A stretch of DNA of 24,006 bases from a virus. Numbering within the stretch: the stretch's first letter is position 1; the number at the start of each line of letters is the position of its first letter. The notes beneath the pieces are model-generated. The model was not told the origin of the DNA, ran no database searches, and saw nothing but the letters and a program-made list of their open reading frames with translations. This document shows, in pieces, positions 699 through 24,006 of this stretch. The DNA is taken from the UHGV virus genome UHGV-1462358. One strand, given 5' to 3'. A program made the translations under genes and the position numbers.

Positions 699-2595
699 GG
701 GGCTGCAGCACTCTGCGCGGGCGGGGCTACGTTCGCTTTACCGGCCAGAACCGCAAACAGCGGTTGAATGGGCAGATGAGAATTACTATCTCCCGAAAGA
801 GTCTGCCTACCAGGAAGGGCGCTGGGAAACACTGCCCTTTCAGCGTGCAATTATGAATGCGATGGGCAATGACTATATCCGCGAAGTGAATGTCGTTAAA
901 TCTGCTCGTGTCGGCTACTCAAAAATGTTGCTCGGCGTTTACGCATATTTCATCCAGCATAAACAGCGTAACTCCCTAATATGGTTGCCAACCGACGGTG
1001 ACGCTGAAAACTTCATGAAGTCTCATGTCGAACCGACCATTCGTGATATTCCGACGCTGTTGGCGCTTGCTCCTTGGTACGGCAAAAAACACCGGGACAA
1101 TACGCTTAGCATGAAGCGTTTCTCAAATGGTCGTGGTTTCTGGTGCCTGGGCGGTAAGGCTGCAAAAAACTACCGTGAAAAATCCGTTGATGTGGCTGGC
1201 TACGACGAGCTTGCCGCTTTCGATGATGACATCGAGAAAGAAGGTTCTCCCACCTTTCTGGGAGATAAGCGTATTGAGGGTTCTGTATGGCCAAAATCCA
1301 TTCGCGGCTCTACACCGAAAGTCAAAGGTACGTGCCAGATAGAAAGGGCTGCTAAGGAGTCAGAACATTTTCTTCGGTTCCATGTTCCATGCCCACACTG
1401 CGGGGAAGAGCAGTATCTGAAATTTGGCGATGAAGAGACACCATTTGGCTTTAAATGGTCTCCGGGAGAACCTTCCAGCGTTTACTACCTCTGTGAACAC
1501 AATGCCTGTGTGATTAAACAACAAGAGCTGGATTTCCTTGAGGCCAGGTATATTTGTGATGAAACAGGTATCTGGACGCGAGACGGCCTTCACTGGTTTG
1601 CTTCATCCGGTACTGAAATTGAACCTCCTGACAGCGTTACATTCCACATCTGGACCGCTTACAGCCCGTTCACAACTTGGGTGCAGATCGTCAAGGACTG
1701 GATAAAAACAAAAGGTGATACGGGTAAGCGCAAAACCTTCGTTAACACGACCTTGGGCGAAACGTGGGAACCGAAAATAGGCGAACGACCCGATGCTGAA
1801 GTTTTAGCGGAGCGCAAAGAGCACTTTGAAGCGTCTGTGCCGGAGCGAGTGGCATATCTAACAGCGGGTATTGACTCCCAGCTTGACCGTTACGAAATGC
1901 GTGTATGGGGATGGGGACCGGGAGAGGAAAGCTGGCTTATCGACAAAATCATCGTTATGGGTCGTCATGATGATGAGTCGACTCTCGCTCGAGTGGATGA
2001 GGCGATCAACAGGACATATAAGCGCCAGAACGGTCTCGAAATGGTTATATCCCGCACTTGCTGGGATATTGGCGGCATTGATCCCACCATCGTCTACAAC
2101 CGCTCAAAAAAACATGGTCTGTTTCGTGTGATCCCTATAAAGGGTGCGTCGGTTTATGGAAAGCCGGTGGCGAACATGCCACGCAAGCGTAACAAGAGTG
2201 GCGTTTACCTCACTGAGGTAGGAACAGACACCGCAAAAGAGCAGATTTATAACCGTTTCACGCTGGTGGCGCAAAGAGACGAGCCGCTGGCGGGAGCGGT
2301 TCATTTCCCGAATAACCCAGAAATCTACGATCTAACCGAGGCCCAACAACTAACTGCTGAAGAGCAGGTGGAAAAATGGGTAGACGGAAAGAAAAAGATC
2401 GTCTGGGACAGCAAAAAACGACGAAATGAGGCGCTCGATTGCTTTGTTTATGCACTGGCGGCGCTTCGTATCAGCATATCCCGCTGGCAGCTAAATCTTG
2501 ATTCACTTCTGGCCAGCCTGCTGGAGGAAGAAGGCAGCCGTAACAATAACAAGACCCTGGCGGATTACGCGCGGGCATTATCTGGAGAGGAATAA
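673..2595 (+). CDS. A: Terminase large subunit (lambda gpA homolog; ATPase/nuclease)
   Basis: 640 aa versus 641 for lambda gpA. N-terminus MNISNSQV and the KSARVGYSK ATPase motif match lambda gpA as recalled. Start overlaps the 3' end of nu1 as in lambda. Confidence 0.95.
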
Positions 2596-2801
2596 TGGCA
2601 ACACAGACTGAACTGGATGCCGCGCGCGCTGCGTTACATGACCTGATGATGGGAAAGCGCGTGGCGACGGTACAGAAAGACGGTCGAAGAGTGGAATTTA
2701 CAGCCACATCAGTCAGCGATCTCAAAAAATATATTGCTGACCTTGAATCTCAGGTTGGTACCACATCACGACGCCGGGGGCCAGCAGGGTTTTACGTATG
2801 A
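2595..2801 (+). CDS. W: Head-tail joining protein (lambda gpW homolog)
   Basis: 68 aa, same as lambda gpW. The sequence ...[40 protein letters not shown]...[10 protein letters not shown] is near-identical to lambda W as recalled. ATG overlaps the A stop. Confidence 0.9.
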
Positions 2802-4390
2802 AAATACCATCTTTAGTGGGACCTGACGGGAAAACATCCCTTCGGGAATACGCGGGATATCATGGTGGTGGTGGCGGGTTTGGTGGGCAGCTGCGGGGCT
2901 GGAATCCGCCGAGTGAAAGTGCAGATGCCGCACTCCTTCCCAACTATTCTCGTGGAAATGCCCGCGCTGACGATCTGGTGCGAAATAATGGCTATGCAGC
3001 AAACGCCGTGCAGCTCCACCAGGACCACATCGTCGGGTCATTTTTCAGACTCAGTTATCGACCGAGCTGGCGCTATCTTGGCATCAATGAGGAGGATTCA
3101 CGCGCATTTTCTCGGGATGTGGAAGCCGCCTGGAATGAGTATGCCGAAGATGACTTCTGCGGGATTGATGCCGAACGCAAGCGAACGTTTACGATGATGA
3201 TTCGTGAAGGTGTAGCAATGCATGCGTTTAACGGTGAATTATGCATGCAGGCGACATGGGACAGCGATTCAACGCGTCTTTTCCGTACTCAGTTCAAAAT
3301 GGTTAGTCCGAAGCGCGTCAGTAATCCAAGCAACATCGGTGATACCCGGAACTGTCGCGCCGGGGTAAAAATCAATAATAGTGGTGCTGCGCTGGGATAT
3401 TACGTCAGCGATGACGGTTATCCTGGTTGGATGGCGCAGAACTGGACCTACATACCTCGCGAGCTCCCCGGAGGGCGCCCCTCTTTTATCCATGTCTTCG
3501 AACCGATAGAGGACGGACAGACCCGAGGAGCCAATGCGTTTTACAGCGTTATGGAGCAGATGAAAATGCTCGATACCCTGCAAAACACTCAGCTCCAGAG
3601 TGCGATAGTGAAGGCCATGTATGCTGCCACCATCGAGAGTGAGCTGGATACGCAGACGGCGATGGATTTCATTCTCGGCGCGGATAATAAAGAGCAGCAG
3701 AGCAAACTGACGGGCTGGCTCGGTGAAATGGCGTCCTATTACTCAGCTGCGCCGGTTCGCCTGGGTGGGGCAAGGGTTCCACACCTGTTGCCGGGTGATT
3801 CTCTCAACCTTCAGTCGGCGCAGGATACCGATAACGGCTACTCGACTTTTGAACAGTCACTGCTGCGCTATATTGCCGCTGGGCTGGGTGTATCGTATGA
3901 GCAGCTTTCGCGAAATTATTCTCAGATGAGTTACTCGACTGCGCGCGCAAGCGCTAACGAGTCATGGGCGTACTTCATGGGCCGTCGCAAGTTTGTGGCA
4001 TCCCGACAGGCCTGTCAGATGTTTCTTTGCTGGCTGGAAGAGGCAATTGTCCGCCGCGTGGTCACACTTCCTTCAAAAGCCAGATTCAGCTTTCAGGAAG
4101 CGAGAACAGCCTGGGGAAATGCCAACTGGATCGGCTCAGGCCGCATGGCTATTGACGGGCTGAAAGAGGTACAGGAAGCCGTCATGCTCATCGAGGCTGG
4201 TCTCAGTACGTATGAGAAAGAATGCGCCAAACGCGGTGATGATTATCAGGAGATTTTTGCCCAGCAGGTCCGGGAAACAATGGAGCGTCGTGCTGCGGGT
4301 CTGAAACCACCGGCATGGGCCGCTGCCGCTTTTGAGGCTGGACTGAAAAAATCAAACGAGGAGGAGCAAGATGGCGCACGAGCTGCGTAA
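2798..4390 (+). CDS. B: Portal protein (lambda gpB homolog)
   Basis: 530 aa. [28 protein letters not shown] and the C-terminal [42 protein letters not shown] match lambda gpB as recalled. Position after W is syntenic. Confidence 0.95.
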
Positions 4391-5714
4391 TCTTCCGCAT
4401 ATCGCCAGTATGGCCTTTAATGAGCCGCTGATGCTTGAACCCGCCTACGCGCGGGTTTTCTTTTGTGCCTTAGCTGGTCAGCTGGGCATCACCCGGCTGA
4501 CAGATACCGTCTCTGGCATCACGCTTGACGCCGGACAAATAGCCGAACCGCTGGCGCTGTTTGGTGAAGATGATGACATGGATACCCGACCATCGCGAAG
4601 CTATCAGGTGGCAAATGGCATCGCGGTCTTGCCGGCTTCCGGCACTCTGGTGAGTAAAACCCGTGCGCTGCAGCCTTATTCCGGGATGACGGGTTACAAC
4701 GGGATCATCGCTCGCCTGCAGCAGGCCATCAGTGACCCCGGCGTCGACGGCATTCTACTGGACATGGATACGCCGGGTGGCATGGTGTCCGGGGCGTTTG
4801 ACTGCGCCGACATTATTGCCCGTATGCGCGATATCAAACCCATCTGGGCGCTGGCCAATGACATGAACTGCAGTGCAGGTCAGCTTATTGCCAGTTCGGC
4901 ATCGCGACGGCTGGTCACACAAACGGCCAGAACCGGCTCCATTGGGGTCATGATGGCGCACAGTAACTATGGCGCTGCGCTCAAAACTAACGGCGTTGAG
5001 GTCACGCTGATTTACAGCGGCGATCGCAAGGTCGACGGCAACCCTTACGAAAAGCTTCCGAAAGATGTGCGTGCTGATTTCCAGACGCGTATCGATGCCA
5101 CTCGTCAGATGTTTGCCGAAAAGGTTTCCGCTTATACCGGCATGTCTGTTCAGGACGTGCTGGACACCGAAGCGGCAGTATTCTCCGGCCAGGAATCTTT
5201 GGATAACGGGCTGGCGGATGAACTTGTTAACAATACCGATGCGCTCGGCGTGATGCGCGAAGCACTCGACAGACGCAAAAAAACAACCCTTGGAGGAACT
5301 ATGCCATCACCTTCTGCATCAGCTGTGACCACTAAGCCAGTTGACCAGGCAGCAACTCAGACAACTGCATCAGCTGAACAGGCCACTACCGTTGACACGA
5401 CAATTGCTTCCGTAGCAGCCCCTGTAGATGTCAGTGCGCAGGTTACTGCAGCAGTAGCTGCAGAGAATAGTCGCATCATGGGCATCCTGAACTGCGACGA
5501 GGCTAAAGGGCGTGAGTCACAGGCGCGAGCACTGGCCGAAACGCCGGGTATGACGGTAGAGAGCGCACAGCGCATTCTGGCTGCTGCACCGCAAAGTGCC
5601 CAGACGCGTACCGATACGGCGCTGGATCGTTTGATGGAAACAGCACCCGGTGCACTCCAAGCAGGTAGCGCATCTTCTGATGCCGCTGACGATTTGTTAA
5701 ACACCCCCGTTTAA
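4371..5714 (+). CDS. C: Head maturation protease / scaffold (lambda gpC homolog)
   Basis: 447 aa. N-terminus [37 protein letters not shown] and the C-terminal AAVAAENSRIMGILNC...LLNTPV match lambda gpC as recalled. Overlaps the B 3' end. Confidence 0.9.
   Translation: MAHELRNLPHIASMAFNEPLMLEPAYARVFFCALAGQLGITRLTDTVSGITLDAGQIAEPLALFGEDDDMDTRPSRSYQVANGIAVLPASGTLVSKTRALQPYSGMTGYNGIIARLQQAISDPGVDGILLDMDTPGGMVSGAFDCADIIARMRDIKPIWALANDMNCSAGQLIASSASRRLVTQTARTGSIGVMMAHSNYGAALKTNGVEVTLIYSGDRKVDGNPYEKLPKDVRADFQTRIDATRQMFAEKVSAYTGMSVQDVLDTEAAVFSGQESLDNGLADELVNNTDALGVMREALDRRKKTTLGGTMPSPSASAVTTKPVDQAATQTTASAEQATTVDTTIASVAAPVDVSAQVTAAVAAENSRIMGILNCDEAKGRESQARALAETPGMTVESAQRILAAAPQSAQTRTDTALDRLMETAPGALQAGSASSDAADDLLNTPV
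5304..5714 (+). CDS. nu3: Nested in-frame scaffolding protein (lambda Nu3-like), translated from an internal start within C
   Basis: In-frame ATG at 5304 preceded by GGAGGA (5295-5300). Lambda encodes Nu3 in-frame within the 3' third of C. Ala/Thr/Gln-rich composition fits a scaffold. Confidence 0.5.
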   Translation, partial: PSPSASAVTTKPVDQAATQTTASAEQATTVDTTIASVAAPVDVSAQVTAAVAAENSRIMGILNCDEAKGRESQARALAETPGMTVESAQRILAAAPQSAQTRTDTALDRLMETAPGALQAGSASSDAADDLLNTPV

Positions 5715-5723
5715 GAGGCTATC

Positions 5724-6056
5724 ATGGCAATTACTGAAGTTTTCACACATAACCAGCCGCTCGGTAACAGCGACCCGGCGCACACTGCGTATGGTCCTGG
5801 CGAACTGACAGCTTCCACTCCAGCCATGACGCCGCTCATGCTGGATGCCACTTCTGGCAAGCTGGCCGTCTGGGATGGTGCTCATGCTGGCGCGGCAATG
5901 GGCATCCTGGCTGTAACCGCAGACCAGAACAGCGCGGAACTGGCATTTTACAAATCTGGCTCTTTCCGTATTGAAGATGTCCTCTGGCCATCTGCCGTCA
6001 CCGACGACAACATTAAACGTAACGCGTTCGCCGGTACTGCAATCAGCATCGTTTAA
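5724..6056 (+). CDS. D: Head decoration protein (lambda gpD homolog)
   Basis: 110 aa, same as lambda gpD. NSDPAHTA...PAMTPLMLD...[10 protein letters not shown] matches lambda D as recalled. Confidence 0.9.
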
Positions 6057-6088
6057 TCCGCATTTCTACAACCATCATCATTCATAAA

Positions 6089-6110
6089 AGCCGCCTGCGC
6101 GGCTTTTTTT
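6089..6110 (+). terminator. Rho-independent terminator-like hairpin between D and E
   Basis: AGCCGC-CTGC-GCGGCT stem-loop at 6089-6104 followed directly by TTTTTTT (6104-6110), 14 nt before the E start codon. Confidence 0.55.
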
Positions 6111-6123
6111 ACGGGAAATATCT

Positions 6124-7149
6124 ATGTCCGTTTACACCACTGCCCAGCTGCTGGCGGTCAATGAGAAGAAATTCAAATTCGATCCGCTTTTCCTGCGTAT
6201 CTTTTTCCGCGAAACCTATCCCTTCAGTACAGAGAAGGTTTACCTGTCGCAAATTCCTGGCCTGGTCAATATGGCGCTTTACGTCTCGCCGATTGTCTCC
6301 GGCAAAGTGATCCGCTCCCGTGGCGGCAGCACGTCTGAATTCACGCCGGGTTATGTGAAGCCGAAACACGAAGTTAACCCACTGATGACTCTCCGCCGCC
6401 TGCCGGATGAGGATCCGCAGAATCTCGCTGACCCGGTCTATCGCCGTCGCCGCATTATCCTTCAGAACATGAAGGATGAAGAGCTGGCGATTGCTCAGGT
6501 CGAAGAGAAACAGGCTGTTTCGGCGGTGCTCAGCGGTAAATACACCATGACCGGGGAAGCGTTCGAGCCTGTTGAAGTCGATATGGGCCGCAGCGCTGGT
6601 AACAACATTGTCCAGGCCGGTGCGGCTGCATGGTCAACCCGCGACAAAGAAACGTATGACCCGACCGATGACATTGAAGCCTACGCGCTCAACGCCAGCG
6701 GTGTGGTCAACATCATTGTGTTCGATCCGAAAGGCTGGGCGCTGTTCCGTTCCTTCAAGGCTGTTGAGAAGAAGCTGGATACGCGTCGTGGTTCTAACTC
6801 TGAGCTGGAAACTGCCGTGAAAGACCTGGGTATGGCTGTTTCATACAAGGGGATGTTTGGCGATGTGGCCATCGTGGTGTACTCCGGCCAGTACGTCGAA
6901 AACGACGTCAAAAAGAATTATCTGCCGGACCTGACAATGGTGCTGGGGAATACCCAGGCTCGTGGCCTGCGTACCTATGGCTGCATTCTTGATGCTGATG
7001 CCCAGCGCGAAGGTATCAATGCCTCGACACGCTACCCGAAAAACTGGGTGCAGTCGGGGGATCCGGCGCGCGAATTCACCATGATTCAGTCAGCTCCGCT
7101 GATGCTGCTGCCAGACCCTGACGCATTCGTCTCCGTCAAACTGGCATAA
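6124..7149 (+). CDS. E: Major capsid protein (lambda gpE homolog)
   Basis: 341 aa, same as lambda gpE. Long stretches (EKVYLSQIPGLVNMALYVSPIVSG..., DPTDDIEAYALNASGVVNIIVFDPKGWALFRSFKAV) are near-identical to lambda E as recalled. Confidence 0.95.
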   Translation: MSVYTTAQLLAVNEKKFKFDPLFLRIFFRETYPFSTEKVYLSQIPGLVNMALYVSPIVSGKVIRSRGGSTSEFTPGYVKPKHEVNPLMTLRRLPDEDPQNLADPVYRRRRIILQNMKDEELAIAQVEEKQAVSAVLSGKYTMTGEAFEPVEVDMGRSAGNNIVQAGAAAWSTRDKETYDPTDDIEAYALNASGVVNIIVFDPKGWALFRSFKAVEKKLDTRRGSNSELETAVKDLGMAVSYKGMFGDVAIVVYSGQYVENDVKKNYLPDLTMVLGNTQARGLRTYGCILDADAQREGINASTRYPKNWVQSGDPAREFTMIQSAPLMLLPDPDAFVSVKLA

Positions 7150-7194
7150 CTTCCCCCAGTGGCCCTGTCGGGCCACCTTTCTGGAGTATTTCCC

Positions 7195-7620
7195 ATGACA
7201 GAAAAAGAAAAGCTGGTCGCCCGCCTGAATGAACTTGGGACCCAGCTTAACCGCGAGGTCAGTACCAGCGGCACCATTCAGGAACTGACGATGCGTATTG
7301 CTGAGCTTGAAGAGGAACTGGATGGCAATGCCGGGTCAGTTGACGGTGAAAACGGCGTGCAGAATGCTTCCGACAGCACCGACAGCACCGACAGCACCGA
7401 CAGCACCGACAACAATGTTGCTAACGTGGCAAAAGTAAAAACGGAATCGGCCACAACGGGTGACCTGGTATCAGTAGAAACGCTGGCCACCCTGCATATT
7501 GACGCTCTGCATGCCACGCGTAACGAGCCGGTATCTATCGTAGAGCCTGGTGTGATTATCCGCGTATCTGAACAGGATGCCGACGACTTGATCGCAAAGG
7601 GGCTGGCTTTCGAAGTCTGA
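7195..7620 (+). CDS. FI: DNA-packaging/head assembly protein (lambda gpFI homolog)
   Basis: Start moved from the track's GTG at 7159 to ATG at 7195, preceded by GGAG; MTEKEKLVARLNELGTQLNREV parallels the lambda FI N-terminus. The C-terminal LATLHIDALHATRNEPV motif also matches lambda FI as recalled. Confidence 0.8.
   Translation: MTEKEKLVARLNELGTQLNREVSTSGTIQELTMRIAELEEELDGNAGSVDGENGVQNASDSTDSTDSTDSTDNNVANVAKVKTESATTGDLVSVETLATLHIDALHATRNEPVSIVEPGVIIRVSEQDADDLIAKGLAFEV
7372..7410 (+). repeat. Perfect 9-bp tandem repeat (GACAGCACC x4.3) inside FI, encoding (DST)n linker
   Basis: GACAGCACC repeated four times plus GAC, directly visible at 7372-7410. Encodes DSTDSTDSTDSTD in the acidic linker between the FI N- and C-terminal domains. 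Confidence 0.9.
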
Positions 7621-7630
7621 AGGGGGCCAC

Positions 7631-7984
7631 ATGGCTGATTTCGATAATCTCTTTGACGAGGCCATGTCGCGAGCTGATAGCGCTATCCGTGGTGTGATGG
7701 GCACAGAGGCAAAGGTGATGTCAGGCGCTTTGTCAGGTGCCACCCTGGTCGGTGTATTCGATGATCCAGAAAATATCGGATATGCCGGTGCCGGGATTCG
7801 TGTTGAAGGAACCAGCCCGACCCTGTTTGTGGAAACCGCCACTGTCAGGCAGCTGCAGCGTATGGACACGCTGACGATTAACGGTCGGCAATTCTGGGTT
7901 GAACGTATTGGTCCGGATGACTGTGGCTCCTGTCATATCTGTCTGGGTAACGGCTCTCCACCTGCATCTTCGCGTCGCCGTTAA
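7631..7984 (+). CDS. FII: Head-tail connector protein (lambda gpFII homolog)
   Basis: 117 aa, same as lambda FII. MADFDNLFD... and the C-terminal ...RRR match as recalled. Confidence 0.9.
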   Translation: MADFDNLFDEAMSRADSAIRGVMGTEAKVMSGALSGATLVGVFDDPENIGYAGAGIRVEGTSPTLFVETATVRQLQRMDTLTINGRQFWVERIGPDDCGSCHICLGNGSPPASSRRR

Positions 7985-7993
7985 GGAGCGCAT

Positions 7994-8548
7994 ATGTCCA
8001 TAAAAGGCCTTGAACAGGCCATAGAAAACCTTAACAGCATCAGCAAAACGGCTGTTCCGCGGGCATCGGCGCAGGCCGTTAACCGCGTGGCAAACCGGGC
8101 CGTCAGCCGCAGCGTGGCAGTCGTATCAAAAGATACGCGCGTACCGCGAAAACTGGTAAAGCAACGCGCCAGGGTGAAGCGTGCGACGGTCAATAGACCT
8201 CGTGCACTTATCCGGGTAAACCGGGGAAATTTACCGGCCATTAAACTCGGTACCGCAAGCGTGCGACTTTCCCGCAGAAAACGGGACAAGAAAGGGGCCA
8301 ACAGCGTTCTGCGCATAGGGCCATTTCGTTTTCCGGGCGGCTTTATCCAGCAACTTAAAAATGGTCGCTGGCATGTCATGAGGCGGACTTCAAAACCTCG
8401 TTACCCCATTGAAGTGGTCAGCATCCCGCTGGCAGCTCCATTAACTACGGCATTTAAAGAAGAACTGCCGAAGCTCATGGAGTCAGATATGCCCAAAGAG
8501 CTCCGAGCATCCCTTACCAACCAACTCAGGTTAATTCTGACACGATGA
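7994..8548 (+). CDS. Z: Tail completion protein (lambda gpZ homolog)
   Basis: 184 aa basic protein at the syntenic position between FII and U. ATG at 7994 preceded by AAGGAG. Confidence 0.8.
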   Translation: MSIKGLEQAIENLNSISKTAVPRASAQAVNRVANRAVSRSVAVVSKDTRVPRKLVKQRARVKRATVNRPRALIRVNRGNLPAIKLGTASVRLSRRKRDKKGANSVLRIGPFRFPGGFIQQLKNGRWHVMRRTSKPRYPIEVVSIPLAAPLTTAFKEELPKLMESDMPKELRASLTNQLRLILTR

Positions 8549-8943
8549 AACACAGCGATATTCGCAAGGTGATTATTGACGCGCTGGAAAGCGCGATTGG
8601 TACTGATGTCATTTATTTTGACGGCAGACCTGCAGTGCTCGAAGAGGGTGATTTTCCCGCTGTTGCCGTCTACCTGACAGATGCGGAATACACAGGGGAA
8701 GAACTGGACGCCGATAGCTGGCAGGCCATTCTGCATATCGAAGTCTTTCTTGAGGCTCAGGTACCTGATTCTGATCTGGATGACTGGATGGAGACGAGAG
8801 TGTATCCGGTTCTCGCAGAGGTTCCGGGGCTTGAATCTCTTATCACCACAATGGTTCAGCAGGGCTATGACTACCAGCGCGATGACGATATGGCGCTGTG
8901 GAGTTCTGCCGACCTGAAATATTCCATTACTTACGACATGTGA
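8545..8943 (+). CDS. U: Tail terminator protein (lambda gpU homolog)
   Basis: 132 aa versus 131 for lambda gpU. ATGA overlap with the Z stop. Syntenic position before V. Confidence 0.85.
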
Positions 8944-8950
8944 GGACCCT

Positions 8951-9688
8951 ATGGCCACACCAAACCCGCTGGCACCAACAAAAGGTGCTGGTACCACCCT
9001 CTGGGTTTACACCGGAACTGGTGATCCATACGCCAATCCGCTTTCAGACGTTGACTGGCTGCGCCTGGCAAAGATTAAAGACCTGCAGCCCGGAGAACTG
9101 ACAGCTGAATCGGAAGATGACACCTACATCGATGATGAGAATGCCGACTGGACATCAACGATGCAGGGGCAGAAATCAGCCGGTGAAACAAACCTGACGC
9201 TCGCATGGATGCCGGAGGATTCCGGTCAGCAGGACCTGGTGAACTGGTTCGATGAAGGCACCGTGAAGGGGTATAAAATCAAATATCCGAATGGTGTTGT
9301 CGATGTCTTTAAGGGCTGGGTGAGCAGTCTCGGCAAGACCATCTCGTCTAAAGAGGTCATGACCCGCACGGCAAAAATCACCAACAATGGCAAACCATCG
9401 CTGGCCGAAGACAGTGGTACCGCGCCGATTGCCGTTACGGGGATCAGCCTGGATAAATCCACGGCGGCTGTGGCTGTCGCGGCCACGACGCAACTGGTTG
9501 TTTCTGTCCTGCCAGCAAGTGCTTCAGATAAGTCTTTCCGCGTAGCCAGTTCTGATCCGTCAAAAGCAACGGTCACCGTCAGCGGCAATACCCTGACTGT
9601 TACCGGCGTGGCGGCAGGCACCGTCGAGATCATCGTAATGAGCAATGACGGTAACTTTGTGGCGATCTGCAAAGTCACTGTTTCCTGA
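8951..9688 (+). CDS. V: Major tail tube protein (lambda gpV homolog) with C-terminal Ig-like (Big_2-type) domain
   Basis: 245 aa versus 246 for lambda gpV. The C-terminal ~90 aa ([15 protein letters not shown]...[23 protein letters not shown]...) has the alternating beta-strand pattern of a bacterial Ig-like domain, as in lambda gpV. Confidence 0.95.
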
Positions 9689-15436: not shown

Positions 15437-18400
15437 ATGGCTAAAACAATTACCGGACGAAAAGGCGGGAGCTCCAGTTCCCGAACTCCCACCGAACAGC
15501 CTGATGATCTGCAATCTGTAGCGAAGGCAAAGATCCTCGTTGCGCTTGGGGAAGGGGAGTTTGCTGGACAGCTCACCGGGAAGGATATCTACCTGGACGG
15601 AACGGCGCTGGAGAACGCCGACGGCTCCCAAAACTTCAGCGGCGTTACGTGGGAATTTCGTCCGGGGACTCAGGCACAAAAATATATTCAGGGTATCCCC
15701 GGCACCGAAAATGAAATCAGCGTGGGCACCGAAGTGTCAAGCACCACCGGCTGGACACATACCTTTACCAACACGCAACTGTCAGCCGTTCGCCTGCGCC
15801 TCAAGTGGCCATCGCTTTTTAAACAGGAGGATGATGGCGATCTGGTTGGCTATTCAATTAACTACGCTATTGATCTGCAGACCGATGGCGGCACCTGGCA
15901 GACGGTACTTAATACCAGCGTAACCGGCAAGACAACTTCCGGCTACGAACGCAGCCATCGCATTGACCTACCGCAGGCAGGCAGCACATGGACGGTGCGC
16001 CTGCGTAAGCTAACGGCGGATGCCAACAGCGCGAAAATTGGTGACACGATGACGCTGCAGAGCTATACAGAGGTCATTGACGCCAAACTGCGTTATCCAA
16101 ATACCGCGCTGCTGTACATCGAATTCGACTCAAGCCAGTTTAACGGCTCTATCCCGCAAATATCCTGCGAACCGCGAGGGCGTGTAATCCGCGTTCCGGA
16201 TACGTATGACCCGGAGACCCGCACCTATAGCGGCACATGGACGGGGGCGTTTAAGTGGGCGTGGACGGATAATCCAGCCTGGATTTTTTACGATCTGGTG
16301 GTGAGCGACCGCTTTGGGCTGGGCAATCGCCTGACGGCGGCCAATATTGATAAATGGACGCTTTACCAGGTCGCGCAATATTGCGATCAGCCGGTTCCTG
16401 ATGGTAAAGGCGGTAGCGGCACTGAGCCTCGCTATACCTGCAACGTGTATGTGCAGGAGAGGAATGACGCCTATACCGTGTTACGAGATTTTGCGGCGAT
16501 ATTCCGGGGCATGACTTACTGGGGTGGCGATCAAATCGTTGCGCTGGCGGATATGCCCCGCGATGTGGATTACAGCTACACGCGTGCAAACGTGGTTAAT
16601 GGGCGCTTTACCTATTCGGGCAGCACCACGAAAACCCGCTATACCACAGCACTGGTTTCCTGGTCCGATCCGGGTAATGCCTACGCGGATGCGATGGAGC
16701 CTGTATTTGAGCAGGATCTCGTTGCTCGCTTTGGCACAAATCAGCTCGAAATGACAGCCATTGGTTGTACCAGACAGTCAGAAGCGAACCGAAAGGGGCG
16801 CTGGGGTATTCTCACCAACAACAAGGATCGCGTTGTTTCGTTCGATGTCGGGCTGGACGGAAACATACCGCAGCCTGGCTATATCATCGCTGTGGCAGAC
16901 GAGCTGCTTTCCGGAAAGGTTATGGGCGGACGCATCAGCGCCGTTAATGGTCGCGTTATCAAACTTGACCGTGTAGCTGATGCGGCAGCAGGTGATCGCC
17001 TTATCCTCAACCTTCCCTCCGGAGCGTCACAGAGCAGGACAATTCAGGCGGTTAACGGGGAATCGGTCACAGTCACCACCGCATACAGTGAGACGCCGCA
17101 GGCCGAAGCTGTCTGGGTGGTTGAGTCAAACGAACTGTACGCACAGCAGTACCGTGTTGTGAGCGTCACTGATAACGATGATGGCACTTTCACCATTACC
17201 GGTGCATGGCACGATCCGGATAAATATGCCCGAATCGATACCGGAGCCATTATTGACCAGCGGCCGGTGAGCGTGATCCCGCCGGGCAATCAGTCACCGC
17301 CAGACAACATCGTAATCAGTTCGTTTTCGGTGGTGCAGCAGAATATCAGCGTCGAAACCATGCGCGTGAGCTGGGACCAGGCGCAGAATGCTATCGCCTA
17401 TGAAGCGCAATGGCGCCGCAACGACGGGAACTGGGTTAACGTGCCGCGCAGTTCCACCACGTCATTCGACGTTCCTGGGATTTATGCCGGGCGCTATCTG
17501 GTACGTGTACGCGCCATCAATGCCGCAGAAATTTCATCCGGGTGGGGATATTCGGAAGAGAAAACGCTGACGGGTAAAGTGGGCAATCCGCCGAAACCGG
17601 TCGGCTTCATCGCTTCCGATAATGTGGTATTCGGTATCGAGCTGAGCTGGGGATTCCCGGCGAACACCGACGACACGCTGAAGACGGAAATTCAGTACAG
17701 TCTGACTGGGACGGAAGACGATGCGATGCTGCTGGCAGACGTACCCTATCCGCAGCGCAAGTATCAGCAGATGGGCCTAAAGGCTGGGCAAATTTTCTGG
17801 TACCGCGCGCAGCTGGTGGACCGCAGCGGAAACGAATCAGGGTATACAGACTTTGTGCGCGGGCAGGCCAGCATCGATGTATCCGATATCACCGATGCAA
17901 TCCTGGAGGATATGAAAGAGTCGGAAACGTTCAAAGACCTGATCGAGAACGCGGTAGACAGCAATGAAAAAATTGCTGGTATGGCTGACGACATTAAACA
18001 GGCCAACGACGAACTGGCGCAACAGGCGCAGGATATCGCCAAAAACGCCCAGGATATCGGGAAGGTTCAGACCAGCGTTACAAACCTGTCGAGCACGGTC
18101 GGAGATGTGTCTTCTTCTCTGAGCAAGCTTGAGCAGACAGTGGCGACGGCTGATACCGCGCTGGGCCAGCGCATCGATAACATCAGCGTGTCTGTGGACG
18201 GTATGACGGGAGGAGTGAAGAACTCTGCCATCGCGATTATTCAGGGCAACCTGGCGCAGGTGGCGGCGCGCAAAACGCTGTCTGCATCCGTCGCCGGTAA
18301 CAGCGCGCAGCTGGACCGCATTGATGAGGTGATCGTCAACGAGAAAGAGGCAACGGCGCGTTCGCTGCTGAGTTTGCAGACTAACGTGAACGGCAACAAG

Positions 18401-18982
18401 GCATCTATCAACAGCCTGAACCAGACGTTCTCCGATTACCAGCAGGCCACGGCCACGCAGATAAACGGGATCACAGCGACCGTCAACGGACACACATCAG
18501 CCATTACCACTAACGCTCAGGCCATAGCGAACGTTAACGGTGATCTGAAGGCGATGTACAGCATCAAGGTTGGTGTCTCCAGCAATGGTCAGTATTACGC
18601 CGCAGGGATGGGGATCGGCGTGGAGAATACGCCGTCCGGCATGCAGTCACAGGTCATCTTCCTGGCTGACCGCTTCGCCGTCACCACGGCAGCAGGTAAC
18701 AGCGTGGCTTTGCCGTTTGTGATCCAGAACGGGCAGACATTCATCCGGGCCAGTTTCATCCAGGACGGCACTATCAGCAACGCAAAGATTGGTAATTTTA
18801 TCCAGTCGAACAATTATGTTGCTGGTTCTGCTGGCTGGAAGCTTGATAAAGGGGGGACGTTTGAGAACTACGGTTCGACTGCTGGTGAGGGAGCCATGAA
18901 ACTGACAAATCAGACGATCAGCGTCAAAGATGGCAGTAATGTTCTTAGGGTGCAGGTTGGCCGATTAACGGGAGTATTCTGA
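15437..18982 (+). CDS. J: Central tail fibre / host specificity protein (lambda gpJ homolog)
   Basis: 1181 aa versus 1132 for lambda J. Conserved blocks (TEVIDAKLRYPNTALLYIEFDS, YSGTWTGAFKWAWTDNPAWIFYDL, YQVAQYCDQPVPDGKGGSGTEPRYTCNVY) match lambda J as recalled. The C-terminal ~150 aa differ from lambda. Confidence 0.95.
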   Translation: MAKTITGRKGGSSSSRTPTEQPDDLQSVAKAKILVALGEGEFAGQLTGKDIYLDGTALENADGSQNFSGVTWEFRPGTQAQKYIQGIPGTENEISVGTEVSSTTGWTHTFTNTQLSAVRLRLKWPSLFKQEDDGDLVGYSINYAIDLQTDGGTWQTVLNTSVTGKTTSGYERSHRIDLPQAGSTWTVRLRKLTADANSAKIGDTMTLQSYTEVIDAKLRYPNTALLYIEFDSSQFNGSIPQISCEPRGRVIRVPDTYDPETRTYSGTWTGAFKWAWTDNPAWIFYDLVVSDRFGLGNRLTAANIDKWTLYQVAQYCDQPVPDGKGGSGTEPRYTCNVYVQERNDAYTVLRDFAAIFRGMTYWGGDQIVALADMPRDVDYSYTRANVVNGRFTYSGSTTKTRYTTALVSWSDPGNAYADAMEPVFEQDLVARFGTNQLEMTAIGCTRQSEANRKGRWGILTNNKDRVVSFDVGLDGNIPQPGYIIAVADELLSGKVMGGRISAVNGRVIKLDRVADAAAGDRLILNLPSGASQSRTIQAVNGESVTVTTAYSETPQAEAVWVVESNELYAQQYRVVSVTDNDDGTFTITGAWHDPDKYARIDTGAIIDQRPVSVIPPGNQSPPDNIVISSFSVVQQNISVETMRVSWDQAQNAIAYEAQWRRNDGNWVNVPRSSTTSFDVPGIYAGRYLVRVRAINAAEISSGWGYSEEKTLTGKVGNPPKPVGFIASDNVVFGIELSWGFPANTDDTLKTEIQYSLTGTEDDAMLLADVPYPQRKYQQMGLKAGQIFWYRAQLVDRSGNESGYTDFVRGQASIDVSDITDAILEDMKESETFKDLIENAVDSNEKIAGMADDIKQANDELAQQAQDIAKNAQDIGKVQTSVTNLSSTVGDVSSSLSKLEQTVATADTALGQRIDNISVSVDGMTGGVKNSAIAIIQGNLAQVAARKTLSASVAGNSAQLDRIDEVIVNEKEATARSLLSLQTNVNGNKASINSLNQTFSDYQQATATQINGITATVNGHTSAITTNAQAIANVNGDLKAMYSIKVGVSSNGQYYAAGMGIGVENTPSGMQSQVIFLADRFAVTTAAGNSVALPFVIQNGQTFIRASFIQDGTISNAKIGNFIQSNNYVAGSAGWKLDKGGTFENYGSTAGEGAMKLTNQTISVKDGSNVLRVQVGRLTGVF

Positions 18983-18983
18983 A

Positions 18984-19286
18984 ATGGCTTATGGAATACA
19001 GACCTGGGATGCTTCAGGAAAACCCAACAACTATGGCATCAAACCCGTTTCCGTCGTTGGGCGAATACAGCTGGCTGCCGGGCAAACCTCCGGCAGCTGG
19101 TCTTTTACGGTGCCCTCAGGAATGAAAGTTGGTTTTGTTCTTTCACTTGATGAAGGAGGTAACAGCGTAGGGCGGCGCATTGTCGCGTCAGGGAGCACAA
19201 TAACCGTAAGCGCTGCATCTTCTGTAGGTCTGGGTAATTATCCGGCCTCAAAGTGTGAAGTGGTCGTTTTCATGGAGAAAGCATAA
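18984..19286 (+). CDS. Hypothetical protein, translationally coupled to J (function unknown)
   Basis: 100-aa ORF with ATG 1 nt after the J stop and GGGAG 9 nt upstream. Shares a G-x3-W-D-A-x-G-K motif with the next ORF. Confidence 0.6.
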   Translation: MAYGIQTWDASGKPNNYGIKPVSVVGRIQLAAGQTSGSWSFTVPSGMKVGFVLSLDEGGNSVGRRIVASGSTITVSAASSVGLGNYPASKCEVVVFMEKA

Positions 19287-19960
19287 TGGCCGAATTTGGC
19301 GCGATGATATTAATGGACAACGGGAACCCATTTGTAACGCCCCAGTCAACGCCTTTTTGTCTTTACGGCAAGTACACTTTCAACTCCTCTGCTAATGGCA
19401 GTTCGCAGCAGGTTGCTCAGAATATTGCATTAAATGCTGACTACCCTGTGATGGTATTTATCAGGACCACAAATACCGCCCAGCCCACGCCAGTAATATC
19501 TTACCGGAACGGAGGAAATGTATATGTCGCGGGGGTTAATCCCTATAACAAGAGCTTCACGTTAACCGCATATATATTTGCCATATTTCCCCAGACGTTA
19601 CCGAAATGGGGGATGGCCATCTGGGATGCGGCAGGAAAGCTGGTGCTCACTAATGAGTCCCGGGTGTTGTCCGACCTACAGACAATTGGAACGCCTGGCG
19701 CAAACGGAGGGATAAATATCGATCAGACACTTAGCGGGCCATGGGCTGTTGCACCTGCACAGCTTGGCCAAAGCATCGTTGTGAATAACTCAACCCAGCC
19801 TCCGACAATCTACACCATTAATGCTTATTCGGCGTGCAGGTTTGACGGGGCCAATACGAGGATAAACGCAGGGGGGACCTCCACTGGCACAGGCTCTCCG
19901 GTAGGGGTAACGAATACTGGAATTTCCTTAACCGCGATAAATACAGCGGCCTATGACTGA
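19286..19960 (+). CDS. Hypothetical protein containing two tandem copies of the domain found in the preceding ORF
   Basis: 224 aa. Start overlaps the previous stop (TAATG). Motif copies at the N-terminus (GAMILMDNGNP) and mid-protein (GMAIWDAAGK) match YGIQTWDASGKP of the upstream ORF. Confidence 0.6.
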   Translation: MAEFGAMILMDNGNPFVTPQSTPFCLYGKYTFNSSANGSSQQVAQNIALNADYPVMVFIRTTNTAQPTPVISYRNGGNVYVAGVNPYNKSFTLTAYIFAIFPQTLPKWGMAIWDAAGKLVLTNESRVLSDLQTIGTPGANGGINIDQTLSGPWAVAPAQLGQSIVVNNSTQPPTIYTINAYSACRFDGANTRINAGGTSTGTGSPVGVTNTGISLTAINTAAYD

Positions 19961-20000
19961 TTGATCGTTTTGGGCGATCAATAACTGATAATTGATCTAT
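19961..20000 (+). promoter_or_regulatory. Inverted-repeat, GATC-rich putative operator/promoter region upstream of the lipoprotein moron
   Basis: TTGATCG-N7-CGATCAA (19961-19981) and an AT-rich ATAATTGAT-N7-ATCAATTAT repeat just downstream. Three GATC sites lie within about 35 bp. Confidence 0.3.
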
Positions 20001-20071
20001 CAAATCAATTATACCCACCTCTTTCATGTTGGTATTGTCTAAGTTCATGAATACCTCTGGATATCATCAAA

Positions 20072-20305
20072 ATGATTAAGCTTCTTATCGGTATGGCTTG
20101 CGCTGCCATGCTTTCAGGTTGCGCTGGTGTACTTGAGAAACAGGAACCGATTTGCAGCGGCACGGCATATATGGGTGGCCATGAGAATACCGTTATGATT
20201 TACGCCGTTCGAAAGCAAAACAACCAGACGCAATACCGGGCCGGATATCCCTTTAACTGGCGCTGGGTAAGTGCGAACACATTCACAAGCACGACATGTA
20301 AATAA
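20072..20305 (+). CDS. Small outer-membrane lipoprotein moron; putative Cor/Llp-like superinfection-exclusion protein
   Basis: 77 aa. Signal peptide MIKLLIGMACAAMLSGC with lipobox L-S-G-C. Located 3' of the receptor-binding genes and flanked by its own terminator. The Cor/Llp assignment rests on size, lipobox and position only. Confidence 0.6.
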   Translation: MIKLLIGMACAAMLSGCAGVLEKQEPICSGTAYMGGHENTVMIYAVRKQNNQTQYRAGYPFNWRWVSANTFTSTTCK

Positions 20306-20325
20306 CTCATGACTTTCAATGCAAA

Positions 20326-20347
20326 CCTCGCCTCGGCGGGGTTTTTT
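20326..20347 (+). terminator. Intrinsic terminator after the lipoprotein gene
   Basis: GC-rich hairpin (CCTCGCC/GGCGGGG arms) followed by TTTTTT at 20342-20347, 21 nt after the stop at 20305. Confidence 0.6.
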
Positions 20348-20363
20348 ATTGCCTGGAGAAAAT

Positions 20364-21473
20364 ATGCTTTATAACACAGGAACTATCTCTATTAACGGAA
20401 ATACCGCAACCGGATCCGGTACAAACTGGACTGCACCGGCCAGCCAGGTTCGCGCTGGCCAGACGATTATTGTCATGTCTAACCCGGTTCAGATGTTCCA
20501 GATTTCATCCGTGAATAGCGCCACGTCAATGACGGTAACGCCTGCTGCATCACCGGCGCTGAGCGGCCAGAAGTACGGCATTCTGGTATCAGACAATATC
20601 TCGGTTGATGGGCTGGCGCTGGCCATGTCGCAGCTTATCAAGGAGTATGACGAGAATATTGGTGCGTGGGAGACGTTCGCCACAACCTCAGCCAACCAGA
20701 ACATTACCGTTACGATCAATGGCACCAGTTTATCAATCCCGGCTCTTGGGAAATTACTGCAGAAGGGGAGCAACGGAGCTTTGCCGGTTAATCAAGGTGG
20801 TACCGGCGCAACGAATGCCGCAGACGCTCGCACAAACCTTGGTTTAGGAAGTAGTGCGACAAAGGATGTCGGAACTGCGGCAGGGAATGTTATGCAGGTG
20901 GGAGCTTTTGGGGTTGGTGCTGCTCTCCAAAATAAGCCCACAGATGCCAGTTCATCCTTCATCAGTGATGCTGCTGGCAATACTCTGTGGGCTCCTGCGA
21001 ATGGCTGTGGGTTTCAGAGTTCCTACACCGAGCAGCGAATTGCGCAGCTGTGGATTACTTACGGTGGTGCGATATTCAGCCGTTTTCTAACAACCACTGA
21101 TGACCCTCAAACACCAAAATCATCAGTGCCGTGGGCGCAGCTGCAGTCTGCAGGTACATCGGACATAAATTTCAAGAAGGTTACTGGAGAACTTAATTTA
21201 GAAGTGTCTCTGGCCAACATCGTGGCAATGGATTTTAAGACCTTCTACTACCTTGCTGATGAAGAGAAAACGATACGCCGAGGTGTTGTTGCTCAGGAAC
21301 TGGAAAAGATAGATCCGCAATATGTTCACTCGGCTGAGGAGTCGGGGAAAATGACCCTAGACCTCAATCCTCTGGTGCTCGATGCGCTGGCGGCAATCAA
21401 AGAGCTGGCAATCCGCGTCAGCGCATTAGAGGGCGACGCTAAATCTCCGGCTTCTGGCTCATCCGCTGGTTAA
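20364..21473 (+). CDS. Side tail fibre protein: constant N-terminal part (to ~20840) fused to the variable part currently in the expressed orientation; C-terminal intramolecular chaperone-like (peptidase S74-type) domain
   Basis: ATG at 20364 with GGAGA RBS; the track's 20319 start runs through the terminator hairpin. GGTGATNAADARTNLGLGSSAT hinge motif is typical of phage tail fibres. C-terminal ...FKTFYYLADEE..GVVAQELEKIDPQYV...LVLDALAAIKELAIRVSALE fits the self-cleaving chaperone domain pattern. Confidence 0.75.
   Translation: MLYNTGTISINGNTATGSGTNWTAPASQVRAGQTIIVMSNPVQMFQISSVNSATSMTVTPAASPALSGQKYGILVSDNISVDGLALAMSQLIKEYDENIGAWETFATTSANQNITVTINGTSLSIPALGKLLQKGSNGALPVNQGGTGATNAADARTNLGLGSSATKDVGTAAGNVMQVGAFGVGAALQNKPTDASSSFISDAAGNTLWAPANGCGFQSSYTEQRIAQLWITYGGAIFSRFLTTTDDPQTPKSSVPWAQLQSAGTSDINFKKVTGELNLEVSLANIVAMDFKTFYYLADEEKTIRRGVVAQELEKIDPQYVHSAEESGKMTLDLNPLVLDALAAIKELAIRVSALEGDAKSPASGSSAG
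20827..20852. repeat. Left recombination site (gix/hix-like 26-bp site) of the invertible segment
   Basis: CTCGCACAAACC-TT-GGTTTAGGAAGT: dyad-symmetric AAACC-NN-GGTTT centre, as in hix/gix sites as recalled. Inner half matches the inner half of the right site at 10 of 12 positions. Confidence 0.6.
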
Positions 21474-22228
21474 ACAGTGAATCTGCGGGCATATCCAAGC
21501 GAACATCGATCCAGCTGTTCGCCGGTACGTCCATCGGTTCACCTTTGGTTTTGATGATTTCACCTTCATCGCTCAGGATGTATTTGCGTTTATACAGACG
21601 GATAGTCAGCCCACCGCTATCGGTTTGCTCTGCCTCAACTACACCCAGTTCCCCCATGCCGCCAGGGTCCATTGGGGGAAGTAACTGCCATCCCTCAGAC
21701 GCCAGGCCTGCCGAACCTGTGAGAACATAAACGCCGACATCAAGCCGTGAAATAGTAATGCCCTCAGCCTCGGCATTCGCCGCACCGCAGCCGCACCAGG
21801 TAAAACCATCCTCCGCTATATCAGCACGCTGGCACTCATCCTTGCTCGTTACAATTCGTGCCACGGGGGAGGCAGCTTTGATAGTGCCGTCACTGGCTTT
21901 TGTCGTATTAGCTGTATGGTAAAATTCATACCATTTACCTGCTGTTCCGCCTATAACCTGGCTAAACATTTTTCTCCCGACAGGCCCACTTAGCCAGCAC
22001 TCAAAGGTGCCGTAATTTGGGCTTCGGTTCATCCAGACACCGTAGCCCGCATCATTAGTTGGCAGGCCGTTGCCGGAACCAGAGGCAATGTTATAAAAGC
22101 CATTTAATCTCGCGTTTTCGTAACGGTTTTGTTCGGCAGGGGCAACAACACCCAAGCCCAAATCCCCTACAGAAAGTATATCGCCAGATGAGCTGTACGC
22201 GTTCCTTGTAGCGCTGCTTCCCAAACCA
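20840..22228. mobile_element. About 1.4 kb invertible DNA segment (Mu G / P1 C / e14 P-type) carrying two convergent alternative tail-fibre C-terminal coding regions
   Basis: Bounded by inverted gix-like sites with identical TT core dinucleotides in inverted orientation. Both cores fall at codon positions 2-3 in the respective reading frames. A Gin/Pin-family invertase gene lies immediately adjacent. Confidence 0.6.
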
Positions 22229-22229
22229 A
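21439..22229 (-). CDS. Alternative tail-fibre C-terminal segment (currently in non-expressed orientation; no start codon of its own within the segment)
   Basis: Minus-strand ORF encoding ...NVGLGSSATRNAYSS..., sharing the (N)xGLGSSAT junction motif with the + strand fibre. It overlaps the + fibre 3' end convergently by 35 bp. The track's GTG start at 22272 lies outside the segment and is probably fortuitous. Confidence 0.6.
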
Positions 22230-22241
22230 CGTTTAATAGAT
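22216..22241. repeat. Right recombination site (gix/hix-like) of the invertible segment
   Basis: GCTTCCCAAACC-AA-CGTTTAATAGAT on the + strand. Its reverse complement ATCTATTAAACG-TT-GGTTTGGGAAGC aligns with the left site. Confidence 0.55.
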
Positions 22242-22305
22242 TGCCACGGGCCGGCCTGGCCGATAACTTCACCTGATTTTTTTGCAGAATTTATTGGGTG
22301 AAAAA

Positions 22306-22861
22306 TATGCAAATTGGCTATGTCAGAGTGTCAACAAATGACCAAAATACAGATCTCCAGCGCCAATCTCTCGAACGCGCAGGATGTGAACAGGTTTTTG
22401 AAGAAAAAATGAGCGGGACGGTAGCGAACCGGCCAGCGCTCAAAAAGCTTCTGCGGACTCTGAATGCGGGCGATACACTGGTGGTGTGGAAACTAGATCG
22501 CCTCGGGCGAAGCATGCGAAATTTAGTGCTGCTGGTGGACGAACTCCGACAGCGGGGCATTCACTTTAAGAGCCTCACGGACAGCATTGATACATCAAGT
22601 CCAATGGGGCGTTTTATATTTCACATCATGTCAGCGCTGGCGGAAATGGAAAGAGAGTTAATCGTCGAACGCACCCGGGCTGGATTAGCGGCGGCGCGGG
22701 AAAAAGGGCGAATAGGTGGCAGACGTCCAAAATTAACTCCCGAGCAATGGGCACAGGCTGGGAGATTAATATTAAACGGCGTGGATAGAAAACAAGTGGC
22801 AATAATTTATGATGTCGCTGTATGCACGCTTTATAAAAAATTTCCGGTGGGACAGGCTTAA
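22306..22861 (+). CDS. Serine recombinase, DNA invertase (Gin/Hin/Pin/Cin family)
   Basis: MQIGYVRVSTNDQNTDLQR... with catalytic Ser in the VRVSTNDQ motif. TLVVWKLDRLGRS, SLTDSIDTSSPMGRF and the C-terminal HTH (KQVAIIYDVAVCTLYKKFP) are near-identical to Gin/Hin as recalled. ATG at 22306 preferred over the track's GTG at 22298. Confidence 0.9.
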
Positions 22862-22903: not shown

Positions 22904-23167
22904 TTATCCATTCTGCCGTACAGTTGGAAATTCAGACGTCAGCCACATGTCAGATTCATCAAACATTTCCTCCAGCATACGGTTCAGCTTTTCCCGATCA
23001 CTTTTGCTGGCATCACTATTTAAGCCGTTCGCCTGCATCGGCTTTACCTTCACTTCGGCATCAGGAAAAATCTGGTGCACCCGCTTCGTTAGTTCAGCCA
23101 GGATGATCTCTCTGGCCCCTTGGAGCCCCTCAACATTTCGCTTGTCATAAACCAGTTCAACAAACAT
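22904..23167 (-). CDS. DinI-family protein (SOS-inducible, RecA-modulating)
   Basis: Internal ATG at 23167 with GAGAGGA RBS gives an 88-aa product. The C-terminal LEEMFDESDMWL resembles the DinI C-terminus (...WESADDWF). A LexA box lies 57 nt upstream. The track's 160-aa version starts beyond the promoter and is rejected. Confidence 0.7.
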   Translation of the reverse strand: MFVELVYDKRNVEGLQGAREIILAELTKRVHQIFPDAEVKVKPMQANGLNSDASKSDREKLNRMLEEMFDESDMWLTSEFPTVRQNG

Positions 23168-23223
23168 ACGGATCCTCTCATAAGTGAAAATTGCCTGTGC
23201 TTGATCTGTTTTCATAAAAATAC

Positions 23224-23243
23224 TACTGTATATACATACAGTC
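23224..23243. promoter_or_regulatory. LexA operator (SOS box) in the divergent promoter region
   Basis: TACTGTATATACATACAGTC matches the CTGT-N8-ACAG consensus (TACTGTATATATATACAGTA) at 18 of 20 positions. A candidate -35 TTGACT overlaps it on the minus strand. Confidence 0.8.
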
Positions 23244-23266
23244 AATAAGCAAGTGAGGGTGCGTTC

Positions 23267-23506
23267 ATGCCTCGTCAACCGGATATTCGTGCTGCTTTTA
23301 TTGCGGCCATACAGCAAAACCCGAAGGGCTATCTCTGCCTGCATACAGACAGATTCATCGCTGAACTGCAGGAGAGGCACTGGCATTTCAGCCAGGCAGA
23401 TGCAAATTCATGGATCGAACGATACCAGCCAGACTTCGCCGATAAGACGACAAACGGAAGTGAGAACCGATACTGGATCCTGCGTAACATGGGGAGGGTT
23501 TTCTAA
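23267..23506 (+). CDS. Hypothetical protein (79 aa), first gene of LexA-box-proximal operon
   Basis: ATG at 23267 with GAGGG 7 nt upstream. Stop overlaps the next start (TAATG). No family recognised. Confidence 0.5.
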   Translation: MPRQPDIRAAFIAAIQQNPKGYLCLHTDRFIAELQERHWHFSQADANSWIERYQPDFADKTTNGSENRYWILRNMGRVF

Positions 23507-23931: not shown

Positions 23932-24006
23932 TGGTCGGCACGAGAGGATTTGAACCTCCGACCCCCGACACCCCATGACGGTGCGCTACCAGGCTGCGCT
24001 ACGTGC
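23932..24006 (-). tRNA. tRNA-Pro (anticodon GGG), 5'-truncated by the window edge
   Basis: Reverse complement reads GCACGTAGCGCAGCCTGGTAGCGCACCGTCATGGGGTGTCGGGGGTCGGAGGTTCAAATCCTCTCGTGCCGACCA. It has D-arm, anticodon loop AUGGGGU (GGG), T-arm GGTTCAAATCC and 3' CCA, and matches E. coli proL as recalled apart from 2 missing 5' nt. Confidence 0.85.

Follow-up and report, generated by a model that had tools for sequence, protein, structure and literature searches.

What recognizes the host receptor at the tail tip of this phage, and is it the C-terminus of its J protein? The question arises from the 24,006-nt stretch of viral DNA analyzed here (hereafter, the window), in which a preliminary description had singled out the distal end of J (nt 18500-18982, corresponding to aa 1022-1181). 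According to that description, the N-terminal and central parts of J closely match the lambda protein, the last ~150 residues do not resemble the lambda C-terminus, and a receptor-specificity module had been exchanged, in keeping with an exclusion-like lipoprotein encoded downstream. Here we trace the relatives of J, of its C-terminus and of the genes that follow it.

J belongs to the HK022/HK97 type

The J translation ends in ...KLTNQTISVKDGSNVLRVQVGRLTGVF, and the terminal sequence quoted earlier is indeed found there, the reading frame closing with ...LRVQVGRLTGVF (Table 1). Full-length alignment with HK022 J yielded 95.3% amino acid identity, reaching 100% over the last 70 residues, with 87.5% identity at the nucleotide level, while HK97 J was 94.4% identical up to aa 1143. 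As judged from these alignments, J in the window is an HK022-type protein whose nearest kin are HK022 and HK97, not lambda. A Pfam search located FNIII-A_GpJ at aa 90-216, Phage-tail_3 at aa 341-503 and Phage_Tail_Tip at aa 1022-1156. Solved relatives identifiable by sequence are T1 gp33 (9l9p), the F2-pyocin fibre (25vf) and lambda J (8iyk). The same J protein, identical residue for residue, occurs in about 38 blocks of public assemblies, where its source label is E. coli "host specificity protein J".

The proposed close match of the remainder of J to lambda was not borne out. BLASTP aligned the two proteins over aa 11-859 with only 32% identity, 50-aa blocks ranged from 18% to 58% identity, and blastn returned no match to lambda DNA. 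Genes of lambda type do occur upstream, at window positions 673-9688, and encode a GpA terminase, a lambda-family portal, an S49 protease, capsid protein E and a gpV-like tube protein with Big_2. By gene content, the window is the late region of a mosaic prophage, in which lambda-type head and tube genes are followed by a tail tip of the HK022/HK97/N15 type, and this mosaicism may explain why a lambda-like J had been expected.

Table 1. Positions of J, its distal segments and the downstream features in the window
Feature	Position	Strand	Description
Gene J	15437..18982	+	1181 aa; central tail fibre/tip attachment protein, HK022/HK97 type; from ORF and translation
Phage_Tail_Tip domain of J (aa 1022-1156)	18500..18904	+	Pfam PF09327, E 4e-49; bulk of the region singled out
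Near-identical tract with HK022 and phi80	18734..19512	+	J aa ~1100-1181, whole 100-aa gene, 224-aa gene up to codon ~75
FhuA-type C-terminal tail of J (aa 1141-1181, TFENYGS...LRVQVGRLTGVF)	18857..18979	+	41 aa; proposed dock for downstream proteins
100-aa gene	18984..19286	+	phi80 gp22/N15 gp22/T1 gp32 family; phrog_557, E 2.4e-36; small beta-sandwich, probable tip accessory component
224-aa gene	19286..19960	+	phi80 gp23/N15 gp23/T1 gp31 family; phrog_425, E 8.8e-81; proposed FhuA-binding receptor-binding protein (RBP)
cor	20072..20305	+	superinfection-exclusion lipoprotein, 77 aa; phrog_1119, E 2.6e-34; lipobox LSGC
Terminator-like hairpin	20323..20344	+	3' of cor; right end of cassette, before the side-fibre gene

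The terminal domain of lambda J is missing from the window protein

In lambda J, Pfam assigns Ig_GpJ_C (PF12421) to residues 1001-1132 (E 4.5e-74). This family had no match in window J, nor in its last 68 aa at E <= 10, and to this extent the reported dissimilarity of the C-termini stands. It does not extend to most of the residues concerned, because aa 1022-1156 make up Phage_Tail_Tip, a domain that lambda J has too, at 845-972, just ahead of its receptor domain. Indeed, BLASTP aligned window residues 1039-1109 to lambda residues 861-931 with 35% identity over 72 aa (E 2e-11 with a 181-aa query and 8.8e-10 with the whole of J). In the alignment, window J terminates ~130 residues short of the lambda end, and its stop lies ~25 residues past the tail-tip domain. 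The ~130-aa terminal domain of lambda is missing from window J, not swapped for a domain of similar size.

Overall, the two proteins share FNIII-A_GpJ, Phage-tail_3 and Phage_Tail_Tip, and are homologous in their N-terminal two thirds. Only lambda J carries a fused C-terminal Ig_GpJ_C receptor domain, whereas only window J has ~190 additional residues between aa ~830 and ~1020, ahead of the tail-tip domain. This additional stretch gave weak matches to the helical Pfam families BLOC1_2 and ATG17_like, which suggests a coiled coil. Because of this insert, a global MAFFT alignment of both J proteins misplaced the lambda tail-tip domain, and local BLASTP and Pfam matches were used instead. The two loci also differ downstream of J, where lambda has lom and the window two small genes and cor.

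A recombination joint within J delimits an exchanged block

Comparison with HK022 uncovered a tract with a single mismatch in 779 nt (18734-19512), set in a J gene that elsewhere diverges by ~13% (11-17% of bases per 100-nt bin). Against this background, such a tract is not attributable to chance and points to recent transfer of a block; together with the E-values of the lambda comparison, it also places the difference from lambda far beyond chance. Identity to phi80 is complete over nt 18755-19426 (672 nt) and amounts to 94% over 18512-20810, while the N-terminal ~1000 aa of phi80 J are only ~54-59% identical to those of the window, so that this phage shares only the distal cassette with it. 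For N15 J, in turn, identity amounts to 90% across aa 1-800, drops to 22-36% in the stretches beyond and recovers to 75% over the final 70 residues. The recently transferred block, as these alignments delimit it, begins within the tail-tip domain (aa ~1100) and continues into the downstream genes.

HK97 provides the complementary view. Its J (gp24) is co-linear with the window up to nt 18851 (aa ~1138-1143), and homology returns at 20363 in stf, which has the same start downstream. Between these points, HK97 has a ~155-aa fused C-terminal extension of J after GWKLNKAG and no further genes, whereas the window has the 41-aa tail followed by the 100-aa gene, the 224-aa gene and cor, none of which is present in HK97. 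The receptor of HK97 is LamB. Its J extension, tested as a diverged Ig_GpJ_C, gave no Pfam match at E <= 10.

These comparisons support the earlier notion of an exchanged receptor-specificity module, with two amendments: the unit extends past J, and its joint is visible against HK97, phi80 and N15, not against lambda. The exchanged unit appears to comprise the last ~40-80 aa of J, the 100-aa gene, the 224-aa gene and cor.

The genes downstream of J form a known FhuA-type cassette

The three genes that follow J have ready counterparts. Phi80 gp22 and the HK022 counterpart match the 100-aa protein in full (100% identity). Homologs of the 224-aa protein are 97% (phi80 gp23), 86% (HK022), 64% (N15), 56% (T1) and 38% (ES18) identical to it. 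The exclusion-like lipoprotein noted previously is Cor (identity 90% to the HK022 and 79% to the phi80 protein), and has a hydrophobic N-terminus followed by Cys17. All of phi80, N15, ES18, T1 and HK022 have J, ~100 aa, ~212-229 aa and cor in this order. In HK022, J (gp24) is followed by two ORFs and Cor (gp27) as in the window, although the small ORFs after J are unannotated in the HK022 RefSeq record. Differences between both phages lie in the DNA outside the near-identical tract, where identity is only 87.5%, in the RBP-like protein, which in HK022 has 212 instead of 224 aa and a divergent C-terminal third (nt 19700-19900, ~51% identical), and in the head genes, which are of lambda type in the window's phage. 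The phi80 locus (gp21, i.e., J, gp22, gp23 and cor) matches the window in order and spacing, including a terminator annotated after cor at the place equivalent to the hairpin.

Only 1 nt separates the J stop from the 100-aa gene, which overlaps the 224-aa gene by 1 nt, with both on the J strand. A single gene erroneously split, or joined by a frameshift, into J and the 100-aa ORF was considered and rejected, as the same stop-start layout is kept in phi80, N15, ES18, HK022 and T1; a terminator annotated between the two genes in T1 also contradicts it. In phi80, a cor promoter is annotated downstream of gp22/gp23; a simple scan of 18700-20500 in the window found no sigma-70-like promoter.

PMC13164509, citing Wietzorrek 2006, describes phi80, N15, ES18, T1 and HK022 as all FhuA-dependent, and close relatives that do not use FhuA as lacking the cassette. 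By homology, the end of J, the 100-aa gene, the 224-aa gene and cor of the window are this known FhuA-type cassette, which is not new in kind, and the identity of its components with those of phi80 and HK022 predicts FhuA as the receptor of the prophage. A functional likeness is offered by T5, in which the detachable tip protein pb5 binds FhuA and the periplasmic-face lipoprotein Llp blocks it for superinfection exclusion (PMC9586334).

J ends in a short tail common to FhuA phages

The J proteins of the window, HK022, phi80, N15, ES18 and T1 have the same alignment end point and share the tail motif TFENYGS..GEGAMK.TN.T.SV.D....LRVQ.G..TG(VF), while HK97 and lambda J run ~130 residues beyond that point. 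Over the last 70 aa, identity to the window is 100% in HK022, 100% in phi80, 75% in N15, 51% in ES18 and 74% in T1; over the preceding 90 aa, the corresponding values are 98, 91, 36, 38 and 32%. In these alignments, conservation among FhuA phages is thus far higher in the J tail than in the 90 aa ahead of it. The J proteins of HK97 and of the LptD-type phage Oekolampad diverge immediately after a GWKLxKxG joint, written GW(K/R).xK.G when Oekolampad is included. In the cryo-EM structure of T1, J is unresolved past residue 820 (PMC11945409).

Such covariation with receptor type could mean that the J C-terminus is itself the receptor-binding domain, swapped here for an FhuA-specific version, and that the small proteins are unneeded for binding. 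The last 70 aa of window J are identical to those of FhuA phages, genome-wide receptor screens flagged the C-terminal tip of GpJ as specificity-associated (bioRxiv 10.64898/2026.04.02.716166), with the classifier of that 2026 preprint picking GpJ C-terminal k-mers as FhuA-predictive, and J itself carries specificity in lambda and in phages of the TolC and NupG types. We nonetheless consider this reading unlikely. The ~25 residues beyond the tail-tip domain, or the 41 aa of the allele-specific tail, are too short for a globular domain like the 132-aa Ig_GpJ_C of lambda; the two downstream genes always go with an FhuA-type tail; and the 224-aa protein has a fold like that of a proven detachable RBP, as described below. 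The C-terminus of J is probably not the receptor-binding region, but the end of a conserved tail-tip fibre plus a short tail.

Predicted fold and conserved N-termini suggest a place for the small proteins at the tail tip

Homolog alignments of 54 and 43 sequences were built for the two small proteins, and both structures were predicted. The predicted 224-aa structure resembles the LptD-type RBP of Oekolampad, an experimentally proven receptor-binding protein of the tail tip that has a gene of its own; the cryo-EM structure of the LptD-type RBP has been published (PMC12685063). No sequence homology accompanied this likeness when the 224-aa family was compared with the Oekolampad RBP, bas18_0025, by hhalign with the 54-sequence profile (probability 0.1%, E 0.46). 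Their common ancestry is therefore unproven, and the two families are treated as unrelated in a 2026 preprint. Searching PDB sequences with the 100-aa and 224-aa proteins gave no useful match.

The Oekolampad (Bas18) locus likewise encodes a J-like protein, a detachable RBP (bas18_0025) and an exclusion lipoprotein (bas18_0026). It differs from that of the window in its receptor, LptD, in the location of the RBP and lipoprotein genes on the opposite strand, in having no 100-aa gene, and in its J tail, which departs from that of the window after GWRIWKGG. A PDB chain named "J-like tail tip protein gp24" (23gd_D) has 1148 residues, which is the length of the Oekolampad J-like protein bas18_0024 (L014 3182-6628), and a structure of the Oekolampad tip may therefore exist. 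The sequence of the Oekolampad RBP is present only in 9rpt, 9rpw and 9rqi, so 23gd is probably without the RBP on J; no paper describing 23gd was found.

In both small proteins, conservation peaks over the N-terminal ~25 residues, where the monomer models show their lowest pLDDT, a combination expected of segments that fold on binding. On the strength of these models, the N-terminal parts are candidate docking segments. The motif WG.xxWDaxGk occurs both N-terminally in the 100-aa protein and at residues 106-119 of its 224-aa neighbor (hhalign, 14 columns, probability 64%, E 6.4e-5), and a looser resemblance to it was seen by eye at the 224-aa N-terminus. Its recurrence suggests a common docking element. 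The N-termini of the 224-aa protein and the Oekolampad RBP also look alike by eye. A tandem duplication of the 100-aa fold as the origin of the 224-aa protein was discarded, the 14-column motif being all that hhalign returned and insufficient for such a claim. As a tentative proposal, which we hold to be possible without quite calling it probable, the FhuA-type 224-aa protein and the LptD-type Oekolampad RBP would form one structural superfamily of detachable tip RBPs that dock on allele-specific J tails via conserved N-termini disordered when alone.

A different function has been put forward for these proteins. Under it, the 100-aa and 224-aa proteins would be host membrane or exclusion factors that work with Cor, with receptor binding located elsewhere. 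Their database names point in this direction, and PMC13164509, reporting no structural matches for the two proteins, proposed a role related to superinfection exclusion instead. We rate this possibility as slightly less likely than receptor binding by J itself. Neither protein has a signal peptide, a lipobox or a hydrophobic segment, their maximum 19-aa Kyte-Doolittle hydropathy being 1.27 and 0.84 vs 1.83 for Cor, and homologs show low computed membrane affinity (PMC12309495). The arrangement of the genes argues in the same sense: both are packed against J on its strand, the annotated phi80 cor promoter lies downstream of both, and the two small genes remain with J even in T1 and ES18, whose cor lies on the other strand. 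The match of the 224-aa fold to a tip RBP also speaks against an exclusion factor. Finally, we deem it very improbable that FhuA is bound by the 100-aa protein, acting as a split-off counterpart of the lambda Ig-like C-terminal domain, with the 224-aa protein serving as assembly chaperone or adaptor.

Proposed organization of the tail tip

We regard it as quite probable that the distal end of J belongs to an HK022-type protein within the known FhuA-specificity cassette and operates as follows. J would form a trimeric central fibre, whose Phage_Tail_Tip domain ends in the 41-residue FhuA-allele tail at the place where lambda has a fused Ig-like LamB-binding domain. This tail would dock the 224-aa protein, made from its own gene, and probably the 100-aa protein as well; binding of the outer-membrane transporter FhuA would be the task of the 224-aa protein. 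Cor, produced in lysogens or infected cells, would block FhuA against further phages with that specificity. Since the J tail must fit its partners, all of them would be inherited and exchanged as one block, and exchange of this kind would explain why a J that is otherwise ~13% diverged contains a tract nearly identical to HK022 and phi80. From the combined analysis we infer the contact with FhuA of a 224-aa protein seated on the J tail, the role of the 100-aa protein and the use of FhuA by this prophage.

The proposed mechanism agrees with the concept of an "RBP locus downstream of gpJ" from the BASEL study (PMC8594841) and with the 2026 receptor screens; alleles of this locus have been linked to FhuA, BtuB, LptD and YncD (PMC8594841; bioRxiv 10.64898/2026.04.02.716166). 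It also agrees with AlphaFold-Multimer models of Dhillonvirus homologs, which seat a "hand-like" protein on the J tip (PMC12309495).

The side fibre varies beside a constant cassette

The side-fibre gene that follows the hairpin showed variation of its own. Its distal segment is invertible, as window positions 21086-22234 are reversed in an otherwise 99.9% identical contig (L008). Crossover sites of 29 bp, AAACCTTGGTTTAGGAAGTAGTGCGACAA and AAACGTTGGTTTGGGAAGCAGCGCTACAA, lie at ~20834-20862 and, inverted, at ~22206-22234. In the window, Peptidase_S74 is found on the expressed fibre end and Phage_tail_C_2 on the silent one (21439-22272, minus strand); the two are swapped in L008. A Resolvase/HTH_7 invertase gene is located after the invertible segment, at 22298-22861. 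In two further contigs (L009 and L011), an identical J and cassette precede other distal fibre modules past the same joint (window ~20850-20880), consisting of Collar plus Caudo_TAP or Gp53-like_C plus Caudo_TAP. Differing modules beside an identical cassette indicate that the fibre tip is exchanged independently of the FhuA cassette. The side-fibre ORF was called from 20319, whereas homology to HK97 stf and the gene call in L008 begin at ~20363/20364; given these starts and the position of the hairpin after cor, the true start is probably 20364.

At the right end, a tRNA-Pro(GGG) gene (23932-24006, minus strand) is cut by the end of the window, and a DinI-like ORF (22904-23386, minus strand) lies just inside it. 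All complete E. coli genomes that were searched matched the right part of the window, most of them with 90-95% identity. Our guess is that the border between prophage and chromosome is near the tRNA gene.

Implications for annotation and receptor specificity

For annotation, these results mean that J in the window should not be described as lambda-like with an exchanged LamB domain, nor the two genes after it as encoding membrane proteins. Identity of the components with those of phi80 and HK022 makes the receptor predictable as FhuA. The only addition to the known system is a small one, namely the fold link between the 224-aa protein and a solved LptD-type binder, which lends modest support to the RBP reading of a family whose role is disputed in publications of 2025-2026. 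As the near-identical tract shows, phages that are otherwise diverged exchange the J tail and its partner genes as a unit, which is the practical one to transplant for re-targeting. If the superfamily reading is true, a joint swap of the J tail and the RBP could serve to re-engineer specificity.
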